A stretch of DNA of 64,000 bases from Escherichia phage A4, in the sequence record ON286972; one strand, written 5' to 3'. The position numbers and the translations under genes were made by a program. The notes below the pieces were generated by a model, which saw nothing but the letters and a program-made list of their open reading frames with translations, was not told the DNA's origin and made no database searches. Positions within the stretch are counted from its first letter, which is position 1. Every line of letters begins with the position of its first letter. Shown piece after piece: positions 2,756 to 64,000 of this stretch.

Positions 2756-2763
2756 AACTTTAT

Positions 2764-34380: not shown

Positions 34381-37300
34381 TTAAGCAGTACGTTGAGCAA
34401 TAAACATATCTACTACTGGACTGTATCCATCATAAATCAACTGAACGATACTCACTCCACCTGGATTTGTGTTAATTTCACCACCAACGTTTGCATAAGT
34501 TCCGTCCCAATCAAAACTATGTCCACCAGTTGTATCTTGTGCGACATAGATATAATAAGAACCAGCTTTACCACTACCAATTAAACCAGTTATTGGTGTC
34601 ATCATTACGTTTTGATCTAGTGTTATATAATACACATTTGATAGACCATCTGGTGTCCAATTACCACCAACAGCAGCAGTACTTGCAGTAACTTTAGGTG
34701 ATGGAGTAACAGCATACTTTTTAGTAGTTACACTTTCAGTTACTAAATCAGCAATATCTGTATGTAGTGTACCTTCAATAGTTACATCTTTAGCAAATGT
34801 TGCATTTTCAGCAAATGAAGATGTACCAGTAACTGTGATTGCATCAGCAGACGCAGAACCTAGTGTTACAGCACCTTTAAGGTTAGTAGCACCAGTAATT
34901 GCTGCACCACCCGCAACTACATTGAAGCCACCCGCAGTGATTTCGATACCACCAGTACTAACAGTTAGTTTCTTACCGATAGTAACAACATCAGATAGTG
35001 TAGTTGCACCAGTAACTGCTAGAGTTGTGTTAATCTTAGCACTTGCCATAGTTGCTAGGCCAGAAGTTGTAATAGTTGCAGTAGTTACTGCACCAGACGC
35101 ACTAACGTTTGCACCAGACACATCACCAGTTGTGGTGATTGCACCATCACCAGCGTTGATAGTAGCACCATTAGTTGCAATACCACCTTTCAAAGTACTC
35201 AAACCTTCAGCAGTGATTGTTGAACCAACTGTTAGGGTTGTACCAGCAGCGATAAAGGTTGTAGAAGTTAGAGATTTAACTTCAACTGCACTTGCAGATT
35301 GGTCCAGTGTACCAATAATCTTACCACTAACAGTAAAGTCGCCAGTAGTTACTGCGTTACCATTAACAGTTAGGCTGTTAGCTGTTGAACCTTGTGCACC
35401 GAATGTTGCAGCACGTGCGTGCATATCTTCATCAGTAGTAATATCCTCAACTGCGTGAATTGTGGTATTAGAAGTTAATGAGTTCAGGGAAATATCCTGA
35501 CCAGCCAAATCTACTGAACCGTTAATATTACCAGCAACAAATAGGTTACTACCAATATAAGTATCACCAACAAATTGGATAGTTTCCGGTCTTGAACTAA
35601 CTTTAGGACCGATGATAATACCTTTCGCAGAAATATCAGCTTTAGGCATAGTCACAGTAGAAGCATCAGAGATGTTCACGGATGCACCATTAACAACCAA
35701 AGCACCACCAACAGTCAAACCAGTAGTTACCGCTGCACTACCAAATGTACCTTTACCAGTTGTGGTAATTGTAGTACCAGTAATGTCACCAGCAGCAGTG
35801 ATTGCGGTATTTGCACTAACAGCCAAACCACCAGTTAGAGTGCTTAGACCAGTAACTTCTAGTGTTTCTCTGGATTTCAAGCTTTTCGCATCAACTGGAG
35901 TAGTAGATAGATCCAATGTTCCAGGGTTTAGTGTTCCATTAATGGTAACATCACCAGAAACTGTTAGTGAACTGAGAGCAGCTTCACCAGCGGTTAGTTT
36001 TCCAGTTAGATTTGTAGTACCAGTAACAGCCAAAGCACCACCAGCACTTAGAGCACCAGTAACTTCCGCACTACTTAATGTAGCTTTACCACTTGTTGAA
36101 AGAGTAGTAGTGTTAGTACCACCATTTAGAGTTGAAACACCAGTAACAGTTAGTGTAGTACCAGCAGTTACAGAACCGAGTGCAGTTAAGTTAGCACTTG
36201 CATCAACACCTTCAACGTTTAGAACAGCAGAACCTAAGTTTAGGCTACCTTCAGGTGTAAATGCACCTTTAACAGTTAGGTCACCAGTAACAACTGCATC
36301 ACCTGAAACATCAACACTTGCTAGTGTTGCTTTACCAGAAGTTTGTAGAGTTGCGGATTGAACTTCACCAGTAGTTTTGATTAATGCAGAACCTGCATCA
36401 ACCCCACCAGATAGAGTACTTAGTCCAGTAACACCTAATGTTTCACCAATTGTCAAATAACCACCAACAGTTGCGTCATTATCAACTGCTACACCAACAC
36501 CAGTAGCACTTACTTGGATTGATTTAGAAGTAATTTTACCACCAACATCAACAGTACCATCAAAAGTTGCAGCACCTACAGTATGTAGGGTTGAACTTAG
36601 TGTAGTTGCACCAGAAATTGTTGGAGCACCAGTAATTGTACCAGTAGTTAGAATTAGGTCAGTACCAACAGTAGTACTTGTAGTACTTGCTAATGAGTTA
36701 GTTTCCAAATCAGCATTTGTGATAGTCAAGTTACCATCGATAGTAACGTCATTATCAACTTGTAGTGATTTAACAGTCAAATCAGTTGTACTAAAATCAA
36801 CGGAAGTTGCAGTGAAAGCACCTTCAACGTGCAAATCACCAGTAACATCTGTTGGTTTAGCTAGTGTTATTTTATCTCCAGCACTTGTGTATGAACCAGC
36901 ACTTACTGAACCATCAACCACTGCCGCAGCAGCAACTTTCAAGTTTCCAGAAGCAACAGTCAAGCCACCTTTAGCAGTAATACCACCGACGTTTACAGTT
37001 ACTGCGTTACCAAATGTTGAAGTACCAGTAACTTCAAGTGCACCAGAAACGGTCGCTTTACCACCGACTGTTGCATCACCAGTAACATTCAATTTACCAG
37101 CGGTTGCTTCAGTACTTGTTAGTTTTGGTAGAATACTTGGTTCAGTATTTTCAGTAACAGTAATAACACCAGAAGAAGTTAGTGATTTAACAGTTAGATC
37201 TGCCGCAGCAGCATTAATTGCACCATCAACAGTTAAGCTTCCACCAATGGTTGCACCTTCAGTTGTTGTTAATGATTTAGAACTGATATCAACTGGGCTT

Positions 37301-40952: not shown

Positions 40953-43124
40953 TTATGGAAGTGTAATGTATGTAATTGGGGATTCGGCTAACAATGGAGT
41001 CCCATCAGGGAAAGCAGTTTTTATTTCGTCTGCTATATCAATGCAAAATACCGAGTTGACCACGTATGTAGCTCGTGTTATATGAGTGTGGAGATCAGTC
41101 CCATTTTCACCAGCACCAGGAATTACAATTCTTGTACCTGCTGCTTTAGCATATTGGTTTGTACCCCATGCAGTGTTATGTGTTCGAATAGTTTTAGCAC
41201 CAACTACTGCTGCTTTAAGCTGTTCATATTTTCCTACGAATGCACCAGCTACTGTTACTACATATTTACCCCCAGATTGTTTGTGTAAAATTGTTCCTTT
41301 GGGGAAATATCTACCACCTGGGAATTCATCATAAGGTAGATAATATTGCTCCGTGACTGGTATCAGTACTGGGCCACGGTGACCAGTTCCATCTATTTCA
41401 GTTGTTACCGTGAAGTTATTACCAGATTGATCTATTCTATCAACATACATTCGTGAGAATGAATAATTTGATATATTAGCGTCATCTTGAACTATATTAC
41501 CAATCCAACTGGTATATGTATAATTAGTTCTGGTATAAACGCCACCACCTTCACCATCTTGATATTGACCAATTACATCTAAATTCTTTGTATAAATTTT
41601 ACTGAATTTTGATGATGATGGTAATCCACGCCAATATAATTTTTCACAAGTTATATTGTGCATATCAGTTTCGTTAGTCCATGCGTTTGCACCGGATGTG
41701 TATATTTCTATACTAGATTCAGGAATGAAAACGTTTTGAACTTTAAAATCTTTTGGTGGACCTGCATACCATGCATATTGGTGTGTTGCATCAGCAGGGT
41801 TAACACCCCATGTAAATTTAATCATTCTGTTTGTTGGTGCAGTTGCTGGATCATCCAAATAGCGACCAGTTAATCCGTCAACAACAAAATCTTGACATCC
41901 ATAAGTGATGATACCTGCGGCAGTTAAGCCAGTTCCAGTTGATATTGTGGTTGATGGAAATGTCTCATTATCTATTATATTAAAATTCTTACCGACTTCA
42001 ACGTGTATACATTGACGACAGTTATATACTCTATTTCGAGCAATAGTGAAGTTTTTAACATATTGACTATCTGGAATATCAACTCCATATGGACCTTTAC
42101 CAGCAACACCGATACCGATACCCCAGTTTGATAGTGGGATTGGAGCGTTAGTACCATCAACGTTTTCAATATGGTTTCCTTCAATGATTAGACCATCAGT
42201 GAAGTGTCTTGAAACTACGTTTAATTCAATACCATCACCATAGATATCGTGAATATGGTTATATGCATAGCGAGCATATTTTACTATCTCACCACTACCA
42301 CCTTGCTGTAGAACACCAAAGTTAACATCGTACATTTCATTGAAACAAAAGTCGAGAATACCTTCTGAAGTTAAATCACGCATAAAGAATGCACAGGTGA
42401 ATGTTGTACCATAAAAGCGGTTGAAATAGAACTTACCATTACCACCAGAAAACTGAATATAACTACGAGCAATGTTTGCCCCTTGTATTTTACAGTTGGT
42501 TGCTGATATCATTGTTTTACCAGTGCCAGTTAATGTGCCACCATACCATTCAATATTTTCAAAATATATTGCTTTGGATAAACGATAAACACCTTTACCT
42601 TGTATTTGGATATCATGAGCTTTAGCGTAATCAGCACAAGCTTGAACTGCGTCAGTATCATCAGCAATACCATCACCGATAGCACCAAATTCTTCAGGTG
42701 TTATATAATACAAAGCTTGTTGTAGTGTTCCACCAGAAACCAAACCAATATAATCAGAACCATTAGTACTGGATAATACTTTAGTATTAACATACATTGA
42801 TTTTATCCATGCACCATTCTTCTTAGCGAAAATATCTAGGATACCACCACTTTCTTGGTCTAATTGCAAATAAGTATAATTATTCTTACCAAGACTATTA
42901 TCTGGGATTTCATTCCCAAATAATACGGTTGGGTGGTCAGCGAGATACTTTGCAGTAATCGCTGAATTATCATTAATCGGTTCACCAACTTGTACGGGCA
43001 ATAAGATGCTTCCGAAACTATCTGTAATAGACAGGGAATTGTTAGCATAATTAATTAATGCCCCATTTTTACCAAGTATAAACTTGGTTTTCATTGTCCC
43101 TTCAAAGTTAGAAAAAACTGCCAT
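40953..43124 (-). CDS. tailspike with pectate-lyase-like right-handed beta-helix (putative polysaccharide depolymerase)
   Basis: Shared N-terminal module; EEFGAIGDGIADDTDAVQACADYA is the hallmark start of Pectate_lyase_3-type beta-helix tailspikes. Confidence 0.75.
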   Translation of the reverse strand: MAVFSNFEGTMKTKFILGKNGALINYANNSLSITDSFGSILLPVQVGEPINDNSAITAKYLADHPTVLFGNEIPDNSLGKNNYTYLQLDQESGGILDIFAKKNGAWIKSMYVNTKVLSSTNGSDYIGLVSGGTLQQALYYITPEEFGAIGDGIADDTDAVQACADYAKAHDIQIQGKGVYRLSKAIYFENIEWYGGTLTGTGKTMISATNCKIQGANIARSYIQFSGGNGKFYFNRFYGTTFTCAFFMRDLTSEGILDFCFNEMYDVNFGVLQQGGSGEIVKYARYAYNHIHDIYGDGIELNVVSRHFTDGLIIEGNHIENVDGTNAPIPLSNWGIGIGVAGKGPYGVDIPDSQYVKNFTIARNRVYNCRQCIHVEVGKNFNIIDNETFPSTTISTGTGLTAAGIITYGCQDFVVDGLTGRYLDDPATAPTNRMIKFTWGVNPADATHQYAWYAGPPKDFKVQNVFIPESSIEIYTSGANAWTNETDMHNITCEKLYWRGLPSSSKFSKIYTKNLDVIGQYQDGEGGGVYTRTNYTYTSWIGNIVQDDANISNYSFSRMYVDRIDQSGNNFTVTTEIDGTGHRGPVLIPVTEQYYLPYDEFPGGRYFPKGTILHKQSGGKYVVTVAGAFVGKYEQLKAAVVGAKTIRTHNTAWGTNQYAKAAGTRIVIPGAGENGTDLHTHITRATYVVNSVFCIDIADEIKTAFPDGTPLLAESPITYITLP

Positions 43125-44872: not shown

Positions 44873-44881
44873 GGATTGGAA

Positions 44882-45490
44882 ATGAAATTAGAAACAGAAC
44901 AACCAAAACTGTTCGTTAAGGGTCATGTACTAATTACTGACGTTACTGATCCTGCGAATGAAAAAATTGTACTCGATAAATCGAACGCAATTCACCCAGA
45001 AAACATGAGTACTGCAATCGCTAACGCACTAGCATATAACCAAGATAGTTCTGGTATCCCAGTTGGTTCAATATCAGAAATGCGTTTTGGTAACGGTGGT
45101 ACTGTAGTATTGAGTACTGGGCGTGTAACATACAAAAAACCACGTGTAACTTCATTTGGTGGTCTATATTCACAAACATATTTGAAGAAAATAAACCCAC
45201 GAATCTCAAGTAGTATTGATTCACAATATAATAACATCACAACTGTTCATATTCCAGGTCAAGCATACACCGATATCGTTTGTATTTGTACTTTGGGACT
45301 AGGTGAACCAGTAGACCAGAATACAAGTTCAAGTACTAACATGGACGGTACTTACGTATTTGATGAATTGGGTTTATATACTGATGGTGATAATGGTATG
45401 CCGTTATCTCATATTATTTTCCACCCAGTAGAGAAAAGTGCGAACCGTGTTTTACAAATAAAATATACTGTTCGTGTACAACTACAGTAA
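44882..45490 (+). CDS. hypothetical protein
   Basis: ATG 44882 with AAGGA RBS (track TTG 44876). Confidence 0.5.
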   Translation: MKLETEQPKLFVKGHVLITDVTDPANEKIVLDKSNAIHPENMSTAIANALAYNQDSSGIPVGSISEMRFGNGGTVVLSTGRVTYKKPRVTSFGGLYSQTYLKKINPRISSSIDSQYNNITTVHIPGQAYTDIVCICTLGLGEPVDQNTSSSTNMDGTYVFDELGLYTDGDNGMPLSHIIFHPVEKSANRVLQIKYTVRVQLQ

Positions 45491-50049: not shown

Positions 50050-52335
50050 ATGAATTTAACACAGCTATTCAAAAGCAGCGACGACCTTGCAACCTCTATG
50101 GGTCATACTTTCTTGACAATCGATCACATCAGTGCTACAGTGCTGACAGTGGATAGCATTATTGATGTATTTGGGACAATGAACGTTGACGCAACGAAAG
50201 TGCGTGATCGCTTGATTGAATATCTGAAAAATACCAATGTTCCACACGCACCACGCAGCACTATGGGGGAAGAAGTTAATCGCACTACACTAATCGTCAA
50301 TCGTGTAATGCAAGAACTATCTAAGAAATCTGTCATCGAACAACTCAAACGTGACGATTTCTCAATTGATGCATTCTTTGTACTGTTTGAATGTTTGTCA
50401 TTCCCAAACACTGCATTAGAAGCAGCATTGTTGGAAGAGGGTGTAACTCGTACTGAAGCGGCCCGTACTCTTCAGAAATATGTAGAATCTCTTGATTCTG
50501 AAATTAACCTACAAAGCATCGCTGATGAACCTACTGGGGAGAAAAAGGTGGCTCAACAACAACCTGCATCAAAACAGAAATCAATCGAAGATTACACGAC
50601 CAACCTAACACAGTTGGCTAAAGATGGTAAACTGGACCCAATGATTGGTCGTCAAAAAGAACTGGACGCACTAATTGAAACTCTGGCTCGTAAAACTAAG
50701 AAGAATGCTATTCTGACTGGTGAAGCTGGTGTTGGTAAAACTCAGATTGTTGACGGTCTAGCACAAGCCATTGTTGATGGTAATGTACCAGAACATCTAC
50801 AAAACATTGAGATTTTATCTCTTAACGTTGGTGCACTAACTGCTGGTACTAAGTATCGTGGTGAATTCGAAGAACGTATTGATAATCTTCTCAAAGAACT
50901 GAAGAAACGTGAAAATACAATCGTGTTCATTGACGAAATCCATATCATGGTAGGTGCAGGTTCTGCAAGCAACGGTTCAATGGATATGAGTAACATGTTG
51001 AAACCAGCACTATCTCGTGGTGAGATTCGTGTAATCGGTGCAACTACTTATGATGAATACCGTAAAAACATCGAGAAAGATAGTGCATTGACTCGTCGTT
51101 TCATGAAAATTGACGTAGTTGAGCCAACTATTGAAGAAACTCGTGCGATTGTAAATGGTCTGCAAGGTACATATGAGAAATTCCATAACGTAACTTTCAG
51201 TACTGAAGCAATGGATGCGATTGTGTCTTTGAGTGATAAGTTCCTGAAGAACAAACACTTCCCAGACAAAGCAATCGACCTTATGGATGCAGCAGCAGCT
51301 AAGAAACGTTCACGCGATGAATCTGATAATGTGATTTCACTACGCACAATTCAAGAAGTTGTTGCGGGAATTGCAAACTTGGATATCAACGTAGTAGCTT
51401 GTACTGAAACTGAACGTATGAAGTCACTACCAGCAGCACTTCGTAGCCGTGTATTCGGTCAAGAAGAAGCAGTGGAGAAATTGGTTGATAACGTAATGGT
51501 TGCACGTGCAGGACTTCGTGAGAAAGCAAGTGTTCAGGGTGCATTCATGTTTGTCGGTCCGTCTGGTACTGGTAAAACTGAAATCACTAAAGCACTAGCC
51601 GATGCAATGGGTTCTGAACTGATTCGCTTCGATATGTCTGAATTTTCACAAGAACATACCGTTGCAAAACTAATTGGTTCACCTCCTGGCTATGTTGGTC
51701 ACGATACTGGTAATGGTCTGCTACTCGACAAAATTGAGCAATTCCCGAATGCAGTTCTACTGCTGGACGAAATTGAAAAAGCACACCCTAAAGTACTGCT
51801 AACCTTCCTACAGGTTCTGGATGAAGGTCACCTAACTGGTTCACAGGGTAAAACTGTATACTTTAACAACGTAACAGTTATTATGACAACCAACTTGGGT
51901 GCAGCAGATGCAAATAAACGTAGTCTGGGTTTGAGTGGTGGTGAAACAGCACAGGAGAAGGCAGTGAAAGCTTTCCTACCACCTGAATTCCTAAACCGTA
52001 TCGATAGCATCGTGAAGTTTAATGAGCTATCCAGTGAAGCTATCCAGAGCGTTATTGATAAGTTCATGGCTGGTCTAAATGAGCAAATCAAAGAGCGTGG
52101 CGTGAAAGTAACACTGACTAAAGCGGCACGTGAATGGTTAGAAGCAAATGGTGTTCAGCCTGGAATGGGTGCACGTCCAATGAAACGTACAATCGAGCAG
52201 AACATCCGTGTTCCTCTGGCTAAAGAAATGCTATGCGGTTCACTGGTAAATGGTGGTAACGTAACATTTGATGTGATTAACGGAAAGTTGGGTATCAAAC
52301 CAAAACGTCAAGTTAAAACCCCATCTGTAGTGTAA
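50050..52335 (+). CDS. clpA: ClpA-like AAA+ unfoldase with two ATPase domains
   Basis: Collinear with E. coli ClpA throughout: GEAGVGKTQIVDGLA (D1 Walker A), IVFIDEIH, GPSGTGKTE (D2 Walker A), LLLDEIEKAHP, GARPMKR. Confidence 0.9.
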   Translation: MNLTQLFKSSDDLATSMGHTFLTIDHISATVLTVDSIIDVFGTMNVDATKVRDRLIEYLKNTNVPHAPRSTMGEEVNRTTLIVNRVMQELSKKSVIEQLKRDDFSIDAFFVLFECLSFPNTALEAALLEEGVTRTEAARTLQKYVESLDSEINLQSIADEPTGEKKVAQQQPASKQKSIEDYTTNLTQLAKDGKLDPMIGRQKELDALIETLARKTKKNAILTGEAGVGKTQIVDGLAQAIVDGNVPEHLQNIEILSLNVGALTAGTKYRGEFEERIDNLLKELKKRENTIVFIDEIHIMVGAGSASNGSMDMSNMLKPALSRGEIRVIGATTYDEYRKNIEKDSALTRRFMKIDVVEPTIEETRAIVNGLQGTYEKFHNVTFSTEAMDAIVSLSDKFLKNKHFPDKAIDLMDAAAAKKRSRDESDNVISLRTIQEVVAGIANLDINVVACTETERMKSLPAALRSRVFGQEEAVEKLVDNVMVARAGLREKASVQGAFMFVGPSGTGKTEITKALADAMGSELIRFDMSEFSQEHTVAKLIGSPPGYVGHDTGNGLLLDKIEQFPNAVLLLDEIEKAHPKVLLTFLQVLDEGHLTGSQGKTVYFNNVTVIMTTNLGAADANKRSLGLSGGETAQEKAVKAFLPPEFLNRIDSIVKFNELSSEAIQSVIDKFMAGLNEQIKERGVKVTLTKAAREWLEANGVQPGMGARPMKRTIEQNIRVPLAKEMLCGSLVNGGNVTFDVINGKLGIKPKRQVKTPSVV
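51196..51207. repeat. 12-bp palindrome TTCAGTACTGAA
   Basis: Inside the clpA-like gene, F-S-T-E frame. Confidence 0.8.
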
Positions 52336-52340
52336 AAAGA

Positions 52341-52368
52341 AAAGGAGAGCCATTGGCTCTCCTTTTTT
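52341..52368. terminator. bidirectional terminator between the clpA-like gene and the giant gene
   Basis: AAAGGAGAGCC-ATT-GGCTCTCCTTTTTT, nearly the same hairpin as at 46607. Confidence 0.65.
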
Positions 52369-52369: not shown

Positions 52370-55300
52370 TTATTGAATATTCAATAGATTTTCTATATCA
52401 GTTCCAGTAATTGACAATCCATTTCTGAATGTATCTAATGGAATTGGTGGATAGAAGTTTTGATATTGAGTAAACTTATCAATGCTCCCCAAGTTCAATC
52501 CATTAAAGCTATAAGACGTTCCTTTAGTAAAATTATGTTCCGCACTATACATGACACCACGTAATAGACGGTCAGTGTTTCTTACCTGAACCTTCTCATA
52601 TCCAACCACAATAATATCATCATTCTGTGCCGCAGCACCTGACAGTACTGAATCAGTAATGATATATGGGCTTATTGAACGAGGTTTAGCAACATAAGTG
52701 ATTGCCTCATCTTCAACGGTTGTAATGTTAATTACACCACATCCTACTTCTTTGATGAACGTGTTATTGACCACAGGTTGTGCATACTGCCACACGCGAT
52801 CATAACTTAGTACTGGTTGAATAACATCAACATCGTATTCAAATACAGTGATTTCAATACCATCAGTCATTTTAGCTCGTACTAGTTCACCCAGGACACC
52901 TTTACCAGAGATTGGCTGATTGTAACCATTATCAATTGTAATACCATCAACTTCAAAAATCTCATTGGAAACTAACCACAAATCAATTTCATCAGGTGTG
53001 ATACCATCATTGAATTTACCACCATATAATGTTTCGTCATAGAATACTTCATAGTTCAATGCATGTATACTGTAATGACGATTATTTTCATATAGTTTAA
53101 GTCCATTGTCATCAAACTCAGGGTCTTGGAAAGTGCGGATTCTAACTAAGTTCATTGATAATGTATAAAAACGCTCATTACTTTCACGCTTAGTTATACT
53201 ATCAAACATTAACACTACACCATTACTATCAACCAACTCTACGTTACCATTACCCAATACACGTACTGTGTATAGTTTTGGTTTTTTAGAGGATTGGATT
53301 TTACTAGCACTTAATATAGTTACCCAGTTACCGTCTTGGAATCGTACATAATCTTCACCATCTGGCGTGAAAATCATAACCTTATCACCATCTTTCAAAC
53401 CTTCATCGTGAACCTTGATTTCAGTAATTGTTTTAATTTCTGAAATTGGGAAGAAGTATTTTTCAGATTCTTTGAACACATCTTTACCCATATTCTCAAT
53501 GACAATATCATATGATGGAATACTTACAACTGCTTCTGACATATTGTAAGGGTTTTGTACGATCATACCCTCAATCTGGAATCTACTTGTGTCTTTTAAT
53601 TGCTCTTGAGCAACTTCATCGAAACCGTAACCATCAACAGTGAAACGTAATTGTGCCATTGTTCTTCCTGATGGGTTTAGTTCAGAAATGTCGATGATAT
53701 AAGGATCAATCTCACTATCTTTAACTTCCCATTTAATGGATTTGGTTTGTGATTCCAATGCCAAGTTATCGAATGCATTCATATCATTGAAATATTTTGC
53801 AGTATTGATACTTTCCAGTACTTCAACATATGCAGAATACATTGGATTATTCTGGTCTTGTGGTAAATCATTTAAATCAATTTCAGCCAATACAACTGAT
53901 TCTCCGGTTGTTATGAATAAGTCTTCCATGAAATCAGATATGCTGTAACTTTCAGGAATCGGTAGATATTCACCTGCCGCATTCACAACATACACATATT
54001 TCCTTGGCATCATAACAAAAGCATACTTATCAACTGCACGATTACTTAAGATTTCTCTAGCAACATAATAATGATCTAGAATATTCTTATTAAATGTTTG
54101 TCGCATTGCAGATAACACATGAACGGTATCAGAATAATAACGGTCATTTAATGTGGTATCATACTTGTAGCAATAAACACCATATTCTATCTCTAGTATA
54201 TTACGAACTTGGTCTTCATTAGTAAACTCAGGGTGATTTTTCTTGATCATATCGACATATTTTTCATATAATTCAATACTAATCTCAAAATAACCATAGT
54301 TGTAATCACTACTTGCACTGAACCCAAAAGGTAGGCGAGTATTAGGATTATCATTATAGTTCGTACCCTTAAATGGACAACCAATCTCATTAGAAACCAT
54401 GTCATCAGATATATTCTTAAACATTTTCACACGAGTTGCTAATGTATTGTATTGAATATATTTCTTAACGTCTTCTAAAATGTTACTGTTGTTTGTATCA
54501 GCAGTTACCTGCTCCAAATCAGCAGTAAATTGGTCAGTCATTGCAATATCAGTTGAATGGGCTTTATACCATGCATCAATTCCTTTAATGACACCATTAC
54601 TAATATCCAAATCTGAATATTTGGTAGTCATTTCAATACCAATCTGTGAAATTAAGGTATTATTATCATATTCAGGGAATGTATAAACATATCTCTGTAA
54701 TTCATAATCATTTCCTATATCCGAAGCATTAGATTGATACTTACTATTGGTTGATTTCAACTCATCAATTGTATAATTACTATCATACGGGTCACATTGA
54801 ATATTATCATAATGCATAATAACGTCGATTTCTTGGAATCGTCTGTTAGGTGTGATAAAGTCACTTGGTAGTGAACCAATCTTTTCCCAACGTTGGGTTA
54901 CGTCATTAAATTGTGCATATTCTAAATCCCAAATGTCTTTTTCAGTCTTAACCCACACACCATCAACTAAAATATAGCCATCTGGGTCAAGGTCATTACT
55001 GATACCATTAATCAAATCATCATCAGAAGTTTTCTGTTCTATTTGAGAACGGATTTTGGTTCTGTATGGTTTAACTTCTTCGAAGTACTCAACAATTTGA
55101 TTAATCAAGTTGTCATTTGAGTAGTTTTGTACGAGAGATTGTTCTAAACCTACAATATAGATATATGAGGTTTTGAATACCCAGTCAACAACACTTTGTT
55201 CAGTGTGTACGTACTTAACCATATCAAAAACAATATTACTTTGATATAAGTTGAATGAATTTTTCAACAACGCTAACGCATTACGAACGTTAACCTCATG

Positions 55301-58300
55301 AGAATTCAAAGAACCATCATCATTGTAAACATTGTACCCAGAATATAACATTGAATTCAATTCAACTGTACTATTCTCACGTCCAATAGCTTTCCAGTAT
55401 ATATTATTACGAGATGCAGTCTTGATGTATAATGTCCAAACACCATCACTATCAGTTACACGGATAATATCACCAATTTGGTAATTTTTAGTGTTTGCGT
55501 CATCTAAACTAACTTCTTGTGTATATTCAGTGTTGCTATCGTATCCAGTATCGTACCAATCAGCCAGATTCCAGTACTGGGTCATATCCAAAGATGTACC
55601 AAGTGATTCTATGAAGTCAGCTTGTTTAATCATCTTGTGTTGACCTTCACCTCTATTTTCTAGAGTGATTGTAACAGTACTACCAACTGCACTTGGACTG
55701 TTCATCAATTGAATGTATCCATTTGGATCAATGTGAACAAAATATACTGAACTAGAAGATAATGGTGCTGGTAGAGTTCCGATGGAACTTACAAATACTG
55801 CATCATTCTCTTTAAAGCGGTTATCTTCTGGTGCAATTACCAATTCATTGTTAAATGATAGAACACGGAATGTAATATCATTTGGGTTCATTTTTAATGT
55901 TTTCACATTAAACACATCATTCATAACAACACTGTTAGTTGTGATGTTCTGTGAACGGTAAAAGTTATTTGCACTCTCAACAAACGCACGACGAGCTTCA
56001 ATGACATTCTGGAACCAAGTTTTATTAGAACCTAAACCAGTTTCAACTTTAGGATAAATTATTTCATTTACAACACCAGTTGAAGTAGTTTCTTGACCAA
56101 TTAGTGAGTTCCATAGTGAATTCCAAATATCTGGGTTAAAGTCATAACTATCACCTTCTTTACAGAGTTGATATTGATCATGCTTCAGTACTTCGATATT
56201 GTCATTTCTATATGAAATTGTCAAAATGCTTGTATCATCATTAACTTCAAATTGCATATTACTTAGAATGAAACTATTTTCATTAATAGGTGCAAACCAA
56301 GGAACATTCAATTGTGTTGGATCTTGAATAATACGTGCAATATCAGTACAAGACTTACTACGAGTAGTCATTGGTGGAACATAAATGGTATTACGAACCC
56401 AGAAATAATAACGAACTACATATGTATCAGTGATTGGATCATATTCCATAGATGAACTGTAGTTCTCATCCATTGCAATCCCACTTGGGAGATACATAGT
56501 ATTGTTTTTATTTTTATTGGCTTGTTCTGCACAATATTTTTCCCAGTTGTATGGTTCTACTGGTGAACTAACCCATTCTAGAACATCAATAACACTGTGT
56601 GGTAATAATTTACCCCAATTATAACGCTTATATTCATTAGTTGCTTTTACATCAACGTTACCATCCTCATCAAAGATTGGACGGGTATAATCCAGATAGA
56701 ATGCAGTGCTAGTGTTCCACCACACTTTACCTACCTTTTCAGCACCCCATGCTTGTAATAGTTCACCGTTACTGCTATACTGTGCTGGGTCCACTGGAGA
56801 GATGAAATCAACATCTTGCATTGCAACCCCAGGAATAACACCGTTAATTGGGTCAAACACATTCAAATACAATGCAGTAATGTTTGTTCTTTCATCATAC
56901 GTAGTAGGACGGTCAAACAAAGTGCTTTCAGGTGCACTGTAACTATATTTTTTAGCAATATATTCATCGCGTTCTTGTTGAGTACTAAATCTACTAACAT
57001 AACGATACAAACGTGGTGCTGATTCTACTGTTGAAAAGTCAATAGTAATGGAAGTGTCAAATGGCACTACCATAACTTTTGGATCTAGTCCAGAAGTGTA
57101 GTATTGGCATTCATCACGTAGGGCATCAGGCATAAAGTTTGTTTCATCAACAAAATAATAATAATCACCATCATTGAGTGGGATATCATCAGACAATAGT
57201 ACTTTACAATATTGCTCAGCATATGGATCTTCACTTTCAATTGGTGTAATAGAAACCATTGTAATACCAGTATCTACTAAATCATACACATTCCATTCGT
57301 TATTGATATCTTGGAACATCCAAACAGATGTTGGGATTTTACCAGAATTATTCATATAACTAATGCGGTCTTGATTTGCAGTTTCGTAATTTAATGTGGT
57401 ATAATCAATTTCATCTAGGGTTACTGGTCCAATATTAGGTAATTGGATATTCTCACTTCTCCCATTACGCATAGGGAATGAGAATTTACCTTTTGGACGA
57501 CTAATCCAGCGTGAATCTTCACCAATTTCACCATAATATACAATTTCATTCTCAGATTCAACCTTATCGGAATAACGGTCAAATGTAATCATTTGTGGTT
57601 GTTGTTTAAACTCATTATTAATTAGTTTAAATTGAAGATTTTTAACACCATCAATGTTACCATAAGAACCAACACGGAATGCCCATTCTTGTAATGCTTT
57701 ATACTCATCAGTATTATATGATTTAGATACACGTAATACTTTTTCTAGTACTTGGTTAGTGCCTTTATCATGAATAAAACCTTTATAGAAATCAATTCGA
57801 CCAGGCTCATTAGTGATCATACGTTGTAAGTAATCACGAGACTGATAGCCAATTAAGTGGTTTGAAAGTTCATTTAATTGAACATCACTAACTGGGGTTT
57901 CATTATCATAATACTGTTGGAAATTAGACACCAAAGTTTCAAATGATGGTAATGTACCAGCTTCTAGGATGATAAATCCAGGAGCTTGTAAACGTCCAGA
58001 CCATGAACCAGTGATATATCCATACAATTTAATCAATTCTTGAACTGCACCATAGGTTGGTTCATAGATATAATCACCGAAAATCGTCTGATCATCAAAA
58101 ATAACAGCATGTTCATAAGAACTGATACTTAAACGAATAAGTGCTATGCGTTTATTTGATTCTTCAGTAGTTCTTACCGTGAATATGTTACCAATACGAG
58201 ATGTTTCAATCTCAAATTGACGTATACCTTGGTTTGAATCATCTAATAATGACCAAACACCACCACTATTTTGTGCAATTGACTGAACTGAACCAAAATC

Positions 58301-61300
58301 TGTACCAAATTTAGCATTAATTGCTGATGGGGTACAAGAAATGAATTCACCAGTACTCAATTGTTGTTGACTCCAGATTAAAAAGTCTTTTGCAATTGTA
58401 TTCCAGTCCTGTTGGATACCAGATTCATCAACTTCTTCAAAAATCCAACCATGTTGCTTTAGATACTCACCATAACCACAAATAAATGTGTAAACTTCCT
58501 GGAAGGTATTCATCAAAGTTCCGTAAGGAATGGATGCATCATTTTTCCACTCATTATAATGAACAACATTACGATTATCAACTTTCAAAGATACTTTATG
58601 ACCGTTTTTAACAGGCAATTTATAATTGAATGTTGCAGAAACTAAATCATAACCATCAATTTGGTAAGCACTACCAGTCCAAGTAATTTTAATTGCACTC
58701 ATTTGCTCATTTCTAATATTATTAGAACGAACTAAACCGATAGATTGGTTTTCTTGTGAAATTAGACCAGTTGCTTCTGATGTAAATGTTAATTGATCAG
58801 CTTTAGTGAATCCACCTAGTTTATGACCCACATTAATATGAGAAGAACGAACAATTTCACCGTACTTAGTTGTAATATTTTTGTTTTGATACATCAAATA
58901 ATCACTAACAATCATTTGATAACCAATAACGCGAGTACTATTCTCACCATGTACGATTGTATCACTATTAAAGTTCAAACGTAAACGAGTATCACCATAT
59001 AAAAACTGTGGTTCATTACCAGATACAGTTTTTAATGTATTATTTCGGGTATCCCAGAAATAGTTTGTGAACTGTGCAGGTTTAGCTTTGAATAACATCA
59101 ATAATTCATCATATGCAAACATTGCTGTGTTCATATAAGTGAATTCCATATCACCCATATCACCATAAGTCCACGGTTCAGCACGATGATTTAGACTACC
59201 ATATACAAGACCTAAAACTTCAGGAGCAATGTACTCAATGACGCAAATATCAACACCAGATGCTGTCTGCTTGCCTGTTTTAGTGATCTTAAAGGGTTGT
59301 GTACCAAAACGTTTGTACTTGTCATATTGACCTTTACGTGCACCAAACAAGATAGTACCCGTTGAGCTATCACCTTTCTCGTTACCAACGTCCCATAACC
59401 CACTAGGAACCATGTTACCTTGTTCGTTGATAACTAATGCCTCATAAACATAAACAACATCACCATCACGTTCGCCAACTTGAACTGCGGTAGGTTCATA
59501 TTCCTGGTTCCACCAAACTGGACGTTGGGAGAAACCAAACATTTCCCACGGATGGGTTGCTGGGCGATATGTACCAAATTGGTCAGTGTAGATTGCTCGC
59601 CATGAACCACGGGCTGCTATTTGTGTTTGTTGACCATTAACCATATAATGTGTTCCAGTATAGTTCCAAGTCATCCAGTTATTTGGATCATAATCATGTG
59701 AACTGTTACTGATACCATTGGTTGCGATGAAGTTAATATAACCACGTAGTAGTAAGTTCTTTTTCTCTTCGTCATTATACTCTGTATCTCTGAAATACGG
59801 AGTCGGGAAAAGATCAGAAGCATCTAGCTTAGGTTGGTAATCTTCATCTTTGAAAATAACATCAATACTATTGAAAATTCTATTTTCTAACTCATATATA
59901 ACGTCATCCATTTTATCAACACCGTTTATTACACGGTATGCTTTAGTGATTGCACCTGTATGACTGATGTTATAACAGCTTTGCTTACTACCAGCATTCA
60001 AAAATGTTGCTTTTTCTGGAACGTGTGCTTTCAAAATACCCAAAAACTGTGGAGTTGGTGGTACAAACGCACGAATGAAGCCAGAAGTACTTGCTACGTT
60101 ATCATAATAGAATGGGAAAGTATTATCATGACCCATATTAATAATTGTTAGAATTTCATCAACAATATTAGAAGCATTATTAGCTAAGAAGTTTGCTGGG
60201 TTCTCATTGTACAAACGGATCATTTGTGTATTGAACTTGTTTACGAAACGGAAATATTCGGATTGCATAAACAATACAGATTCAAATAGGTCAATATCTT
60301 CATTTGCAGAATGTGCCATTAACGGTAGCATTGATGCTTCGTTTTGAATAATCTTAGTACCAACGGAGTTATCCACTAAACCTTTAGACAAACGATCTTC
60401 GTAGTCGTTGAAATCATCAACGGAACCACTGGTGATATTCTTTTGAATGATATCTTTAAAATGTAATGTAAAATTACTTTGGTTGATATAAAGAATATTA
60501 TCGTTGTATGGGTTATTTTGTAAATTGATTGGGATTTCATATGCACCCAACTCTTTATTTGGTACTTCAGTACTGCTGTATGTTCTAATTTGAATCACTG
60601 ATTCATCTTTAAGAGCTACATCTTCACCTAAAGTGATGCTTTGAACCTTGTTATTATATACATGACGTGTATAATCGGTTACATCAACTCCATCAACTTG
60701 AATTTCAATGATTTCGGTACTCTTACCATCAATAATTTTCTGGGCTAATTCAAATGTGCGATTGAAACGTTCACTTTGAATACCTTCACCACTAATTACA
60801 TGCCAATCCATATAGGTTTGACGTTCTTCTTTGTAATATTGATAGGTACGATCCACTTCAGTAACATATGCATACATACCTTCTAATGGATTTTTAAAGT
60901 TTTCCATTTCGAATACAGTATTGAATACACGATACATATCAGTGTGTTCTATTTGTGGCGTTTGTTTAACGAATTGCTTTGAATCTTCCTTAGAACGAAC
61001 CCAATCGGTCTTAAGGTGTAGTTCATTATCTTTACCAACTACATTATAGTAGTACAATCCAGAAATTTCAGTTTCAACACCCAAATGATCATATGTATAA
61101 CGAACACTTTGTAGGAAGTTTTCGTACATATAGTAATTATAATTACCTAGTTCGATATTATAACCATATACTTTATCAGTGCCGTAATTATAGTTGATTT
61201 TAAAACCAAATAGGGATGAACCAACAAAATTACTTGATGGATAAATTGTAGAATCATTTAATTTAAAACCATCACGGTCATATAATTGGAATTGTGGGAA

Positions 61301-62347
61301 TACGTTTACACCAGATTTTGTTTGTGCTCTAATCCAGTTAACACCATTCCAGTACATGGATGTATTTTTATATACATTACCATCACGCACCAAAATAACA
61401 TCACCATTATGTGGCTCACCACTTGGGCGGTCGTCAGTTTCTTCATCTGGGTCCAATGCTAGACCATATGTGCGAGAACCATCTTGCATTTTCTTAATAA
61501 AAACTTTATAAATGCGGTTGTTTTCACCAACGTTACCTATACTAGTGAAAAGAATACGCATACCATCTTGTGGAATAATCCCGTCAATACGAATACCATC
61601 ATTTACGTCTTTTTGGACGATATCTTCTGGTTTAATTGTATCAGAGAAAAGATCCACAACACCACGGAAATGTGTCCCGTAGTTAATTAATTCGATATTT
61701 TTATTGTACTCGATGATTGGTGCTTGTGCACGAATAAAACGAGTATCTTGTGTCATGTCAGCAGTTAGTACTGTTCCATCTTCTAGTGTTTGACCAATAG
61801 TATACCAAAAGTTCTGTAGGGACCATGTGTTTCCGTTATCAGCACCACGTTCCATAACAATAAAGTCAGGAGTTGTGATACCATAACTATTTTTACTATC
61901 CCACAAATAGGAACTATAGTTGGTCATTTTGTTTGGGTTAATTGGCGGTGTCCAAGAATAGAACTTACCAGAAAATAGACGGCTCTCGTTTGAAGTTAAC
62001 GTGCCGTAGTGTTCCATGTAGCCAACCAAATCATCATAAAATTGAAGCGAACGAATGCTTGTGTCATCATTACGAGACACATATGCTGTTGATAATTGAT
62101 ATAGCTGACGTTCAACGGTTGCTTCGTCAAGGAAAATCTTAGCAGATGCAGCAGGAGAACCCATATCACCAATATATCCATCAACGATTTCATTATCCGC
62201 TGGATTGAACCATTGTTGAATTACATCATCACTAACCTTTTGAATGTCTTCTAAGCCTTGCATCCATTCAGGTAATCTTTTAATGAAAAGCTTCTGTTGT
62301 ACTGCTTCTGCCGTTTTAGTTGGTAGAAACTTAAAATTATTAGTCAT
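52370..62347 (-). CDS. giant protein of about 3300 aa (putative virion structural protein)
   Basis: Single uninterrupted ORF; ATG at 62347 has GGAG RBS and lies 36 bp downstream of an ATAAATAA motif (track ATG 62377 has no RBS); no enzymatic motif recognised. Confidence 0.7.
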   Translation of the reverse strand: MTNNFKFLPTKTAEAVQQKLFIKRLPEWMQGLEDIQKVSDDVIQQWFNPADNEIVDGYIGDMGSPAASAKIFLDEATVERQLYQLSTAYVSRNDDTSIRSLQFYDDLVGYMEHYGTLTSNESRLFSGKFYSWTPPINPNKMTNYSSYLWDSKNSYGITTPDFIVMERGADNGNTWSLQNFWYTIGQTLEDGTVLTADMTQDTRFIRAQAPIIEYNKNIELINYGTHFRGVVDLFSDTIKPEDIVQKDVNDGIRIDGIIPQDGMRILFTSIGNVGENNRIYKVFIKKMQDGSRTYGLALDPDEETDDRPSGEPHNGDVILVRDGNVYKNTSMYWNGVNWIRAQTKSGVNVFPQFQLYDRDGFKLNDSTIYPSSNFVGSSLFGFKINYNYGTDKVYGYNIELGNYNYYMYENFLQSVRYTYDHLGVETEISGLYYYNVVGKDNELHLKTDWVRSKEDSKQFVKQTPQIEHTDMYRVFNTVFEMENFKNPLEGMYAYVTEVDRTYQYYKEERQTYMDWHVISGEGIQSERFNRTFELAQKIIDGKSTEIIEIQVDGVDVTDYTRHVYNNKVQSITLGEDVALKDESVIQIRTYSSTEVPNKELGAYEIPINLQNNPYNDNILYINQSNFTLHFKDIIQKNITSGSVDDFNDYEDRLSKGLVDNSVGTKIIQNEASMLPLMAHSANEDIDLFESVLFMQSEYFRFVNKFNTQMIRLYNENPANFLANNASNIVDEILTIINMGHDNTFPFYYDNVASTSGFIRAFVPPTPQFLGILKAHVPEKATFLNAGSKQSCYNISHTGAITKAYRVINGVDKMDDVIYELENRIFNSIDVIFKDEDYQPKLDASDLFPTPYFRDTEYNDEEKKNLLLRGYINFIATNGISNSSHDYDPNNWMTWNYTGTHYMVNGQQTQIAARGSWRAIYTDQFGTYRPATHPWEMFGFSQRPVWWNQEYEPTAVQVGERDGDVVYVYEALVINEQGNMVPSGLWDVGNEKGDSSTGTILFGARKGQYDKYKRFGTQPFKITKTGKQTASGVDICVIEYIAPEVLGLVYGSLNHRAEPWTYGDMGDMEFTYMNTAMFAYDELLMLFKAKPAQFTNYFWDTRNNTLKTVSGNEPQFLYGDTRLRLNFNSDTIVHGENSTRVIGYQMIVSDYLMYQNKNITTKYGEIVRSSHINVGHKLGGFTKADQLTFTSEATGLISQENQSIGLVRSNNIRNEQMSAIKITWTGSAYQIDGYDLVSATFNYKLPVKNGHKVSLKVDNRNVVHYNEWKNDASIPYGTLMNTFQEVYTFICGYGEYLKQHGWIFEEVDESGIQQDWNTIAKDFLIWSQQQLSTGEFISCTPSAINAKFGTDFGSVQSIAQNSGGVWSLLDDSNQGIRQFEIETSRIGNIFTVRTTEESNKRIALIRLSISSYEHAVIFDDQTIFGDYIYEPTYGAVQELIKLYGYITGSWSGRLQAPGFIILEAGTLPSFETLVSNFQQYYDNETPVSDVQLNELSNHLIGYQSRDYLQRMITNEPGRIDFYKGFIHDKGTNQVLEKVLRVSKSYNTDEYKALQEWAFRVGSYGNIDGVKNLQFKLINNEFKQQPQMITFDRYSDKVESENEIVYYGEIGEDSRWISRPKGKFSFPMRNGRSENIQLPNIGPVTLDEIDYTTLNYETANQDRISYMNNSGKIPTSVWMFQDINNEWNVYDLVDTGITMVSITPIESEDPYAEQYCKVLLSDDIPLNDGDYYYFVDETNFMPDALRDECQYYTSGLDPKVMVVPFDTSITIDFSTVESAPRLYRYVSRFSTQQERDEYIAKKYSYSAPESTLFDRPTTYDERTNITALYLNVFDPINGVIPGVAMQDVDFISPVDPAQYSSNGELLQAWGAEKVGKVWWNTSTAFYLDYTRPIFDEDGNVDVKATNEYKRYNWGKLLPHSVIDVLEWVSSPVEPYNWEKYCAEQANKNKNNTMYLPSGIAMDENYSSSMEYDPITDTYVVRYYFWVRNTIYVPPMTTRSKSCTDIARIIQDPTQLNVPWFAPINENSFILSNMQFEVNDDTSILTISYRNDNIEVLKHDQYQLCKEGDSYDFNPDIWNSLWNSLIGQETTSTGVVNEIIYPKVETGLGSNKTWFQNVIEARRAFVESANNFYRSQNITTNSVVMNDVFNVKTLKMNPNDITFRVLSFNNELVIAPEDNRFKENDAVFVSSIGTLPAPLSSSSVYFVHIDPNGYIQLMNSPSAVGSTVTITLENRGEGQHKMIKQADFIESLGTSLDMTQYWNLADWYDTGYDSNTEYTQEVSLDDANTKNYQIGDIIRVTDSDGVWTLYIKTASRNNIYWKAIGRENSTVELNSMLYSGYNVYNDDGSLNSHEVNVRNALALLKNSFNLYQSNIVFDMVKYVHTEQSVVDWVFKTSYIYIVGLEQSLVQNYSNDNLINQIVEYFEEVKPYRTKIRSQIEQKTSDDDLINGISNDLDPDGYILVDGVWVKTEKDIWDLEYAQFNDVTQRWEKIGSLPSDFITPNRRFQEIDVIMHYDNIQCDPYDSNYTIDELKSTNSKYQSNASDIGNDYELQRYVYTFPEYDNNTLISQIGIEMTTKYSDLDISNGVIKGIDAWYKAHSTDIAMTDQFTADLEQVTADTNNSNILEDVKKYIQYNTLATRVKMFKNISDDMVSNEIGCPFKGTNYNDNPNTRLPFGFSASSDYNYGYFEISIELYEKYVDMIKKNHPEFTNEDQVRNILEIEYGVYCYKYDTTLNDRYYSDTVHVLSAMRQTFNKNILDHYYVAREILSNRAVDKYAFVMMPRKYVYVVNAAGEYLPIPESYSISDFMEDLFITTGESVVLAEIDLNDLPQDQNNPMYSAYVEVLESINTAKYFNDMNAFDNLALESQTKSIKWEVKDSEIDPYIIDISELNPSGRTMAQLRFTVDGYGFDEVAQEQLKDTSRFQIEGMIVQNPYNMSEAVVSIPSYDIVIENMGKDVFKESEKYFFPISEIKTITEIKVHDEGLKDGDKVMIFTPDGEDYVRFQDGNWVTILSASKIQSSKKPKLYTVRVLGNGNVELVDSNGVVLMFDSITKRESNERFYTLSMNLVRIRTFQDPEFDDNGLKLYENNRHYSIHALNYEVFYDETLYGGKFNDGITPDEIDLWLVSNEIFEVDGITIDNGYNQPISGKGVLGELVRAKMTDGIEITVFEYDVDVIQPVLSYDRVWQYAQPVVNNTFIKEVGCGVINITTVEDEAITYVAKPRSISPYIITDSVLSGAAAQNDDIIVVGYEKVQVRNTDRLLRGVMYSAEHNFTKGTSYSFNGLNLGSIDKFTQYQNFYPPIPLDTFRNGLSITGTDIENLLNIQ

Positions 62348-62382
62348 GTATAGGACTCCATAAATTCGTTCATTCATTTGAT

Positions 62383-62390
62383 TTATTTAT
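62383..62390 (-). promoter_or_regulatory. late-promoter-like motif for the giant gene
   Basis: ATAAATAA immediately after a terminator, 36 bp upstream of ATG 62347. Confidence 0.35.
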
Positions 62391-62395: not shown

Positions 62396-62419
62396 AAAAA
62401 AGGCGACCCGAAGGCCGCC
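62396..62419 (-). terminator. rho-independent terminator with UUCG tetraloop (minus strand)
   Basis: Minus-strand GGCGGCC-UUCG-GGUCGCC followed by TTTTTT. Confidence 0.6.
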
Positions 62420-62428: not shown

Positions 62429-64000
62429 TTAAAAACCAATATTAATATTACTTTTAGCTAGAGAGTTAACGATTTGTACGTTATCAACGGTAGCAGTACT
62501 AATGAATATTTGGTCAGGTCTAGAAGGTATCTCAAACAATGAACCAAACTTAGAATTAGGGTTTTGAGCTACAATTACAACAGTACTAATGTGTCTACCA
62601 AGTTGGGTATGAAGGTACGTACACAAATCAGTATAATAGAAACTTTCACCAAAATCCCAGTTCTCAACTGCAAAGTACTGGTTAGTTAATGAAACAATAT
62701 TTTGACGAATTTCATCATCACTCATTGTACTATTAGGTAATTTCACTACTTTGAAATCAGCTTTATAATCCGGTGCTGCACTATTACCAAATAAAGGCAA
62801 ATATTCAGCACTGTGCCATATCAAACTATCACTAATTACAGTTTTCTTCTCAACATCCTTGAAGATATCTTGTAATTCAACCGATGTTGGTGGTTTAGGC
62901 ATATCACCTTTAGCACCATTCTTCAACCAAATATCAACTTCTGTCTTATATGAGTTTGTTAAAACATACATATCAATTAAGTTGGTTCTGCTTGGGTCGA
63001 TTCGATTATCATCTGGTGCATAATGCTTCCAGTGGAAGTTAATAGACGTTCTAGCATTAGTTTTTATAGTAAGTTCAGATGTAATATCCTTATAACCATA
63101 ATAATTAAGCTTTTTATTAGCGTCAACACTTGTACCCATGTTTTTAATACAACGATAGAAAGCAGTTTCTGGAGTAGCCGCACTTGGGTCTGTAACTTCA
63201 GTCATGTTCTGAATTAGAACACCCAAACGGTCATTGTTATTACCAACTGTTTGTTCGATGAAGTAATATTGCCCTTCGTATTGGAATGCAATAATAAAAC
63301 CAGTACCTTTACTATATAGTTCACTTAGTGTAGTTGAGCGAATTTCATTATTACGAATGAATTCTTGTCTCTTGTACGCATTAGTTTCCGCTAATGCCTG
63401 ATCCATTGTGTAATTCCATGTTGAATCCATGATAGTGAATGATGAATTTGGTAATGTCAATGAAGAAATAGTAAAATCTTCATTTTGTTGAAATACCAAT
63501 ATACCACCATATTTTCTAGAATCTTCACCTGTCCAATCAGGAACAATAGATTGGAATTGGTTAGGATTTAATGGAATACCATTACTATCCATACTTTCTG
63601 ATGTAATTACAACTCTTGAACCATCCAAATAACCATTTTCTTGTTTTATTGTATCCAGAATCTGGAAATCAATGTTATTGGTTAGGCCCACGTTACTAGT
63701 ACTGGTAGAGTTTGATGAAAGAATCTCAATTTTATCACTTTGCACTGAACCAGTACTAATATCAGTGATTTTCTTAGAGCTTACAAAGTAAAAACGAACT
63801 TTTTCTCCACCAACAAATACATACTCAACACCATTGGAATCAAATTCCCATGTTTCAGCAGTGTATTGGATGTTAACCATCACCTGTACTAACGAACCAT
63901 TGTATGTTATAGTATCACTAGTGGTTGTCATTTCCAAAGGAACCCATGTAGTGGATACAATATCATAAATTAGAATAAAGTTAGTTTTCTTATCTAACAT
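62429..64000 (-). CDS. hypothetical protein (start coincides with window edge, may be 5'-truncated)
   Basis: 523-aa ORF; minus-strand ATG sits exactly at the window end. Confidence 0.5.
   Translation of the reverse strand: MLDKKTNFILIYDIVSTTWVPLEMTTTSDTITYNGSLVQVMVNIQYTAETWEFDSNGVEYVFVGGEKVRFYFVSSKKITDISTGSVQSDKIEILSSNSTSTSNVGLTNNIDFQILDTIKQENGYLDGSRVVITSESMDSNGIPLNPNQFQSIVPDWTGEDSRKYGGILVFQQNEDFTISSLTLPNSSFTIMDSTWNYTMDQALAETNAYKRQEFIRNNEIRSTTLSELYSKGTGFIIAFQYEGQYYFIEQTVGNNNDRLGVLIQNMTEVTDPSAATPETAFYRCIKNMGTSVDANKKLNYYGYKDITSELTIKTNARTSINFHWKHYAPDDNRIDPSRTNLIDMYVLTNSYKTEVDIWLKNGAKGDMPKPPTSVELQDIFKDVEKKTVISDSLIWHSAEYLPLFGNSAAPDYKADFKVVKLPNSTMSDDEIRQNIVSLTNQYFAVENWDFGESFYYTDLCTYLHTQLGRHISTVVIVAQNPNSKFGSLFEIPSRPDQIFISTATVDNVQIVNSLAKSNINIGF

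Follow-up and report, generated by a model that had tools for sequence, protein, structure and literature searches.

In bacteriophage Mu, the peripheral subunit of the baseplate wedge is BW3 (gp48), which joins two BW2 chains in a three-helix core bundle and bears the loop on which the fiber docks (PMC11915804). The BW1, BW2, BW3, and fiber genes are consecutive in both Mu and Pam3, and in both phages BW3 is peripheral and bears the fiber-docking sites (PMC11915804, PMC9942802). Mu genes 45 to 49 and P2 genes V-W-J-I-H share one order of spike, gp25-like, gp6-like, X, and fiber, in which the X of Mu is BW3; in T4, the gene following gene 6 is gene 7. Here we describe what follows the gp6-like gene of Escherichia phage A4, namely, a single minus-strand gene (52370..62347) for a protein of 3325 amino acids plus a stop codon (~380 kDa), to which we refer as the giant protein. 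The DNA analyzed is a stretch of 64,000 nucleotides from sequence record ON286972 (the window), and positions are counted from its first letter.

Rak2-like jumbo phages (RaK2, K64-1, PBECO4, and phAPEC6) possess branched, multi-depolymerase fiber systems and are for that reason under study as therapy for encapsulated Klebsiella and Escherichia coli. The function of the family to which the giant protein belongs is not addressed in the literature that we searched. An earlier note on this DNA, made from the letters and a list of open reading frames (ORFs), had called it a protein of unknown function and suggested a structural role from its place beside fiber and baseplate-like genes. We hold, with somewhat more belief than doubt, that it is a late-expressed, low-copy, giant peripheral subunit of the baseplate wedge, standing in the position of T4 gp7, Mu gp48 (BW3), and P2 gpI. 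New here are the quantified synteny and translational coupling of the wedge operon, the gp6-likeness of the neighboring protein, the breadth of the family, its invariant central block, and its design of a conserved core with a variable tail.

Results

The giant gene is a near-invariant and usually translationally coupled downstream neighbor of a gp6-like gene. Synteny was scored in the 80 best IMG/VR loci, 77 of which show the 5' end of the giant gene. A gp6-like hidden Markov model (HMM) matches the adjacent upstream ORF on the same strand in 75 of these 77 loci, and at 63 of the 75 junctions the stop of the gp6-like gene and the start of the giant gene overlap or abut, which indicates translational coupling. 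A gp25-like gene is found among the four nearest upstream ORFs in 68 of the 77. Downstream of the giant gene, distant loci carry a gene for a protein of ~200 amino acids (PHROG 11259) and then fiber genes with Collar, Gp53-like_C, or Peptidase_S74. The order of the operon is spike, gp25, gp6, giant, small protein, and fiber.

A fuller order can be read in JP4, where a gp53-like gene is followed by genes for a 749-amino-acid structural protein, a gp5-like hub/lysozyme, a small lysozyme, and a gp25-like protein, and then by an HNH insert, a 1153-amino-acid "wedge subunit," the giant, and a convergent AAA+ protease gene. The same order holds in CBB, RaK2, PA5oct (gp128 next to gp129), Xoo-sp13, RAS14, and metagenomic contigs. 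Pfam confirms gp53, the gp5 OB domain and lysozyme, GPW_gp25, and gp15 in relatives, and the same genes flank the giant on an independent 80-kb contig (L092). The HNH endonuclease gene of JP4 (L001 23094-23858) lies between the gp25-like and gp6-like genes; no such insert is at that position in contig L092, CBB, or RaK2.

The window ends within the gp6-like gene of A4 (62429..64000, minus strand), so that the C-terminal 523 amino acids of its product are included. This protein, the inferred partner of the giant, belongs to PHROG 10646 ("baseplate wedge subunit"), and the full gene is present on contig L092 (2485-5949). A profile of 73 gp6-like proteins is co-linear with T4 gp6 over 310 columns (amino acids 29-448 versus 22-356; E 3.9e-4), and the alignment begins at the core-bundle helical domain of gp6. 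Several of the gp6-like wedge proteins (L092:2485-5949, L009:6837-10001, and L010:6867-10001) are labeled with Pfam family PF27647 (DUF8360). Because the profile aligns with T4 gp6 at this E value, we suggest that PF27647 may be a divergent gp6/baseplate-J family. The giant stands in the gp7/BW3 slot and is, in genomic terms, an obligate companion of the gp6-like protein. What we claim concerns function and position, not homology to gp7.

The giant protein matches PHROG 10938 ("virion structural protein") from end to end (E = 0; 5221 bits; residues 1-3322 versus positions 1-3324 of a 3324-position profile). Because nucleotide identity to Asteriusvirus phages (PBECO4, 121Q, phAPEC6, and others) is ~77% and extends only over the 5' 7.6 kb, and because the closest relatives of the giant share 73% protein identity, the source phage is, on these matches, a Rak2/PBECO4-like jumbo myophage with a sequence that is new at this identity. 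Orthologues within PHROG 10938 (CBB_236, phAPEC6 gp245, RaK2 ORF070w, and those of PBECO4, 121Q, and GAP32) are co-linear with the A4 protein end to end at 58-73% identity and share its neighbors: a gp6-like wedge gene precedes the giant gene, and a convergent gene for an AAA+ protease follows it. The A4 copy differs most from them in its C-terminal 875 amino acids, where identity is 41-58%.

Two of these orthologues are established virion components. CBB_236, which we confirmed as a 3340-amino-acid orthologue adjoining the CBB_237 wedge gene, was found in purified virions by mass spectrometry (MS) (21 peptides, 7.7% coverage) (PMC5259590). In phAPEC6, gp245 (381.88 kDa) was likewise found in virions by MS, with 17 unique peptides, and is listed directly after gp244, a "baseplate wedge" protein (PMC7247149). 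These data support the view that the giant, known in A4 from its sequence, is a virion structural protein. The structural role that the earlier note had read from gene position is borne out in this way, and the virion proteomics that it had proposed as a check, already published for relatives, points to the same role. The family is thus already catalogued and verified by MS, and the A4 copy is an additional, ~73% identical member.

The earlier note had described a single uninterrupted 10-kb ORF of about 3300 codons, flanked by a bidirectional terminator and a UUCG-tetraloop terminator and preceded by a late-promoter-like motif and a GGAG ribosome-binding site. The ORF list and its translation agree: the frame runs without interruption through 52370..62377 on the minus strand and holds 3335 codons counted from the ATG at 62377, or 3325 from the ATG at 62347. 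The true start is probably ATG 62347, because a T4-style start site a few bases past the ATAAATA motif would land at about ATG 62377; the closer homologues, 3321-3346 amino acids long, match the ATG 62347 start as well. The 10-codon in-frame extension from ATG 62377 (62348..62377, minus strand), whose ATG has the promoter motif 6 nt upstream, is probably untranslated. The GGAG ribosome-binding site (62356..62359, minus strand) lies 8 nt before ATG 62347, the start to which the earlier note had assigned it.

Both flanking hairpins pass a consensus scan for terminators. The one that ends the upstream gp6-like wedge gene (62402..62419, minus strand) is an intrinsic terminator whose 7-bp stem is GC-rich and which has a TTCG loop and a T-run. 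The second, a bidirectional hairpin with a 12-bp stem and T-runs on both sides (52340..52366, both strands), is common to the giant and the convergent AAA+ protease genes. The late-promoter-like ATAAATA motif stands at 62384..62390 on the minus strand. Nine of the 11 occurrences of ATAAATA in the window, counted on both strands, fall ≤80 nt upstream of a correctly oriented ORF of ≥100 amino acids, and on this placement the copy at 62390..62384 appears to be a true signal of this phage. A late sigma factor resembling gp55 is encoded by relatives. The late-promoter motif, together with the gene's own terminator, would fit a late structural gene.

By its behavior across the window, ATAAATA (consensus aATAAATAa) is the late-type promoter core of this phage. 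Examples are at 62384-62390 (minus strand) and 17436-17443 (plus strand), and the motif is also found upstream of ORFs starting at 14422, 21181, 21715, 33439 (minus strand), 39918 (minus strand), 44265 (minus strand), and 44375. The T4 late octamer TATAAATA is depleted in the window (2 observed versus 8.3 expected) and, showing no enrichment, was ruled out as the promoter core of this phage; the 7-mer ATAAATA is the actual motif.

We mapped conservation along the giant protein against 49 distant homologues and scanned it in five segments against Pfam, PHROG, and NCBIfam at E values up to 10. Amino acids 1 to ~2450 align in all 49 distant homologues. Every comparison shows a sharp fall in identity near amino acid 2450 (for the nearest relative, 84% before it and 57% after), and the most conserved windows are amino acids 1-350, 1401-1575, and 2276-2450. 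In these alignments residues 1-2450 stand out as a family-wide conserved core and residues 2451-3325 as a lineage-specific region. The giant protein has no internal repeats.

The N-terminal conserved region (amino acids 1-1250; 58598..62347, with this and the following regions on the minus strand) is conserved in 49 of the 49 distant homologues and has no family match. The central signature block (amino acids 1351-1620; 57488..58297) is marked by invariant columns, among them Y1521, G1523, K1528, and G1529, which are identical in all 49 aligned members (motif FY.GFI..KGT), and is a candidate attachment site for the gp6-like dimer. Amino acids 1621-2450 (54998..57487) are conserved and form an array of small beta-barrel and alpha/beta domains, for which the AlphaFold predicted local distance difference test score (pLDDT) is mostly 70-92. 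The AlphaFold model of amino acids 1251-2450 as a whole (mean pLDDT, 75) is a chain of confident small beta-barrel and alpha/beta domains with one long exception in the monomer, amino acids 1410-1546, a partly helical stretch modeled at pLDDT <50 that holds the invariant residues. In the model of amino acids 2381-3325 (mean pLDDT, 66), the lineage-specific C-terminal region (amino acids 2451-3325; 52373..54997) has a helical domain at ~2520-2820 and beta-rich domains at ~2867-3097 and ~3163-3325.

None of the five segments matched Pfam, NCBIfam, or a further PHROG, even at E = 10, and the PDB, searched by sequence and by profile with the full-length protein, its central block, and a whole-family profile, yielded nothing significant. 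Fold searches with the modeled domains of amino acids 1621-2450 gave generic beta-barrel matches only. None of these searches, by family, PDB sequence, or fold, identified a domain. The earlier note had recognized no catalytic motif, and we agree, having found no catalytic family or fold in the Pfam and NCBIfam segment scans, the PDB searches, or the fold searches of the models. The label "D-alanyl-D-alanine carboxypeptidase" on the EJP2 orthologue is unsupported by the family scans. Comparison of the central block and the N-terminus with P2 gpI by hhalign gave short, non-co-linear matches (E 0.04-0.19), and a likeness of the N-terminal "LP....TE" to the N-terminus of gpI yielded no signal. 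When the C-terminal part of T4 gp7 was used to look for homologues, four close fragments were all that came back.

The family is broad. A profile of the central block (amino acids 1351-1620), searched against 1.84 billion representative proteins, retrieved 1231 clusters at E ≤1e-3 and 774 at ≤1e-30. Nearly all of the best 150 matches listed are 3000-6300 amino acids long and have the block ~1300-1900 residues from the N-terminus; family giants range from about 2800 to 6300 amino acids. IMG/VR holds at least 574 loci on contigs of up to 600 kb. The central block is all that can still be recognized in the distant jumbo phages Xoo-sp13 and RAS14, and their genes remain giant, encoding 3245 and 3138 amino acids, respectively. 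The Xoo-sp13 giant directly follows an annotated "baseplate wedge" gene, and the RAS14 giant follows a similarly large unannotated gene.

Distant members bear CBM_5_12 (e.g., at residues ~3404-3432 of P0081), FG-GAP, and TIG modules. In 6 of 21 aligned members CBM_5_12 is inserted inside the central block, which argues for an exposed, carbohydrate-facing location. The insertion falls between the beta part and the helical part of the block, in a surface-exposed, insertion-tolerant loop.

The gene is also intact well beyond A4. An identical giant protein with identical neighbors is encoded on contig L092. The central 1200 amino acids are matched in 72 isolate phage records, the C-terminal third is matched over ≥80% of its length in 71, and full-length orthologues are present in ~70 isolate genomes. 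Uninterrupted genes of the same architecture are found on hundreds of metagenomic contigs.

Several neighbors of the giant gene deserve mention. Convergent to it, and within the tail/baseplate module, is a gene at 50050-52335 (plus strand) for a 761-amino-acid ClpA/Lon-like double-AAA+ protease/unfoldase, which has the same position in JP4, CBB (CBB_235), and RaK2 (ORF069). The AAA+ protease may be a chaperone for assembly of the giant protein, or a factor that processes it. A fiber cluster also lies nearby (34381-39918, 40953-43124, and 33521-34309, all on the minus strand). It includes an 1845-amino-acid tail fiber protein with seven stretches matched by PHROG 4549, a 723-amino-acid protein matched chiefly by PHROG 6117 ("colanic acid degradation"), with weaker N-terminal tailspike/tail-fiber matches, and a DUF4376 protein. 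When the fiber genes beside the giant were scanned with Pfam for docking domains like those of gp10, nothing informative emerged. A few genes downstream of a distant giant, L010:26547-28607 encodes a 686-amino-acid protein with Hint/homing-endonuclease-intein domains and may be an intein-containing structural gene.

Discussion

If the giant protein is a peripheral wedge subunit, its gene would be transcribed late from its own ATAAATA promoter, and the protein would be present at probably six copies per virion. A conserved element would dock on the gp6-like dimer and so complete each of the six wedges. We place this element most readily in the central block (amino acids ~1410-1546), because the trifurcation unit and the core bundle of known wedges are intermolecular, and an invariant segment that does not fold as a monomer would fit such a role; the conserved N-terminal 350 amino acids are an alternative. 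Strung out as small domains, the other ~3000 residues would form the outer rim of the baseplate, which measures ~36 nm in relatives (PMC5259590). The fast-evolving C-terminal 875 amino acids would face outward and offer a lineage-specific docking surface for the branched tail-fiber system and/or the host surface. We place the variable parts on the outside because of the identity step at amino acid 2450 and the CBM_5_12, FG-GAP, and TIG modules of distant members. The C-terminal region would coevolve with the clade-specific root of the branched fiber system, and it may touch the host surface, by analogy to the CBM/adhesin modules of distant members. The giant would have no enzymatic role.

A number of results weigh against this reading. 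The Pfam models of gp7, PF21428 (helical), PF21427 (domain V), and PF21456 (domain VI), all match T4 gp7, and none matches the five segments of the giant or 21 central-block members at E ≤10. Alignment by hhalign of a 262-sequence profile of the block with a 121-sequence gp7 profile gave E 0.65, and that of the whole family with gp7 gave E 0.35. Fold searches against the solved gp7 chain were negative for the confidently modeled domains but carry little weight for the region that would matter, amino acids 1410-1546, which is modeled at pLDDT <50. A likeness that we had spotted by eye between the central block (NFEK..F..Y ... FY.GFI..KGT) and T4 gp7 663-753 or P2 gpI reached an hhalign E of 0.37 once, disappeared with deeper profiles, and is put down to chance. 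The BW3 proteins of simple myophages give their N-terminal region to the core bundle, and the N-terminus of the giant is unlike that of gpI. On these comparisons the giant is not demonstrably a member of the gp7 family. Finally, the true BW3 could be the PHROG 11259 protein, which is of gpI-like size and is encoded next to the giant in distant relatives.

This last point leads to an account that we find rather unlikely and yet take seriously, in which the giant is a baseplate accessory, an outer-rim or fiber-hub scaffold attached to the finished wedge from outside, and another protein, the likeliest being that of PHROG 11259, supplies the third strand of the core bundle. The A4 copy of the PHROG 11259 protein (204 amino acids; 44876..45490, plus strand), which an HMM of the small downstream ORFs matches at E 2e-60, is close in size to P2 gpI (176 amino acids). 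In 17 of 19 distant loci its gene comes immediately after the giant gene (e.g., L009:20760-21350 and L010:22937-23662, as well as L017, L019, and L021), its orthologue CBB_230 is a structural protein by MS (PMC5259590), and the giant itself shows no likeness to gp7 or gpI in sequence or in the fold of its confidently modeled parts. The PHROG 11259 protein, however, is equally without similarity to gpI or gp7. In the Rak2-like clade its gene is ~7 kb away on the opposite strand, whereas the giant gene stays beside that of the gp6-like protein, in most cases with translational coupling, and the canonical order puts BW3 directly after BW2 (PMC11915804). We regard the PHROG 11259 protein as a candidate adaptor or alternative BW3, which makes it either a possible partner of the giant or a rival for the gp7 role.

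It is improbable that the giant is a host-binding appendage rather than a building block of the baseplate, be it a fiber, a central adhesin, or the whiskers that give CBB and phAPEC6 their "hairy" tails. A fiber or adhesin would sit poorly with a protein that has no internal repeats, coiled coils, collagen-like or beta-helix segments, or fiber chaperone domains, and that is modeled as chains of globular domains. Receptor-binding proteins, moreover, are not typically conserved so widely: three quarters of this protein is shared by phages of hosts as different as E. coli, Agrobacterium, and Xanthomonas. As for whiskers, the family is present in RaK2 and PA5oct, whose literature as searched mentions none. 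The size of the giant and its presence in virions are all that would recommend an internal or ejected protein, whether a tape measure, a protein of the head interior, or an enzyme like the N4-type virion RNA polymerase, which is of similar size; we consider this idea very improbable. Tape measure proteins follow a rule of ~1.5 Å per residue. At that rate 3325 amino acids would give a tail of ~500 nm, ~4 times too long for the ~125 nm observed (PMC3622015, PMC5259590). The models show beta-rich and alpha/beta globular domains, not long helices, and a separate ~750-amino-acid protein of the hub module is a better tape measure candidate. No polymerase or other enzyme family was detected, and the carbohydrate-binding insertions point to an exposed site, not an internal one. 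That the ORF is an artefact, open by chance or made of several genes fused in assembly (the latter one of the outcomes that the earlier note had named as refuting it), may be set aside as already refuted. No evidence for it was found, and a few database records (CMSTMSU and K64-1) carry the gene in pieces, but the same protein is encoded on an independent contig, in ~70 isolate genomes, and on hundreds of contigs, and peptides of its orthologues have been detected by MS (PMC7247149, PMC5259590).

The rim of the T4 baseplate needs several separate proteins, gp7, gp8, gp10, and gp11. Building on the wedge-subunit reading, we tentatively propose a "mega-wedge," a bolder idea that is possible but that we would on balance bet against. 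Here a single chain of 300-700 kDa would replace the T4-type periphery (gp7, 8, 10, and 11), plug into the gp6 dimer through an invariant, hitherto undescribed FY.GFI..KGT element unrelated to the known gp7/BW3 cores, and act as a chassis for carbohydrate-binding and adhesin domains. It would be the baseplate design shared by a very large clade of jumbo phages, most of them uncultivated (at least 1231 protein clusters, on contigs of up to 600 kb).

That a jumbo phage should have a big structural protein is no surprise in itself, yet the result points to a concrete role for a large family. Should the wedge-subunit reading prove true, a protein family that is among the largest uncharacterized ones in phage metagenomes would gain a name and a role open to testing. 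A giant wedge subunit that carries the fibers would be a structural hub of host recognition and a natural target for host-range engineering.

Comparison with known wedge proteins

T4 gp7 (1032 amino acids) resembles the giant in several respects. Its gene is the next one after gene 6 and is a late structural gene, no other wedge protein is larger, and, judged by the positions of its Pfam domains, it has a conserved helical core in midchain with peripheral domains before it. The giant differs in being three times larger, in having no detectable similarity to gp7 in sequence, in profile, or in the fold of its confidently modeled parts, and in its surroundings, as the annotation tables of JP4, CBB, and RaK2 list no homologue of gp8, gp9, gp10, or gp11 beside the giant gene. 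The BW3 proteins (Mu gp48, P2 gpI, and Pam3 gp23) hold the same slot in the gene order, and the giant is ~15-20 times larger than they are (P2 gpI has 176 amino acids). If the reading that we favor is true, the conserved wedge of contractile tails can take as its completing subunit a protein ~twenty times the size of the smallest. In other jumbo myophages, phiKZ and Goslar, an extended outer baseplate likewise surrounds an inner wedge ring of T4 type (bioRxiv 10.64898/2026.04.21.720040; PMC13250141).

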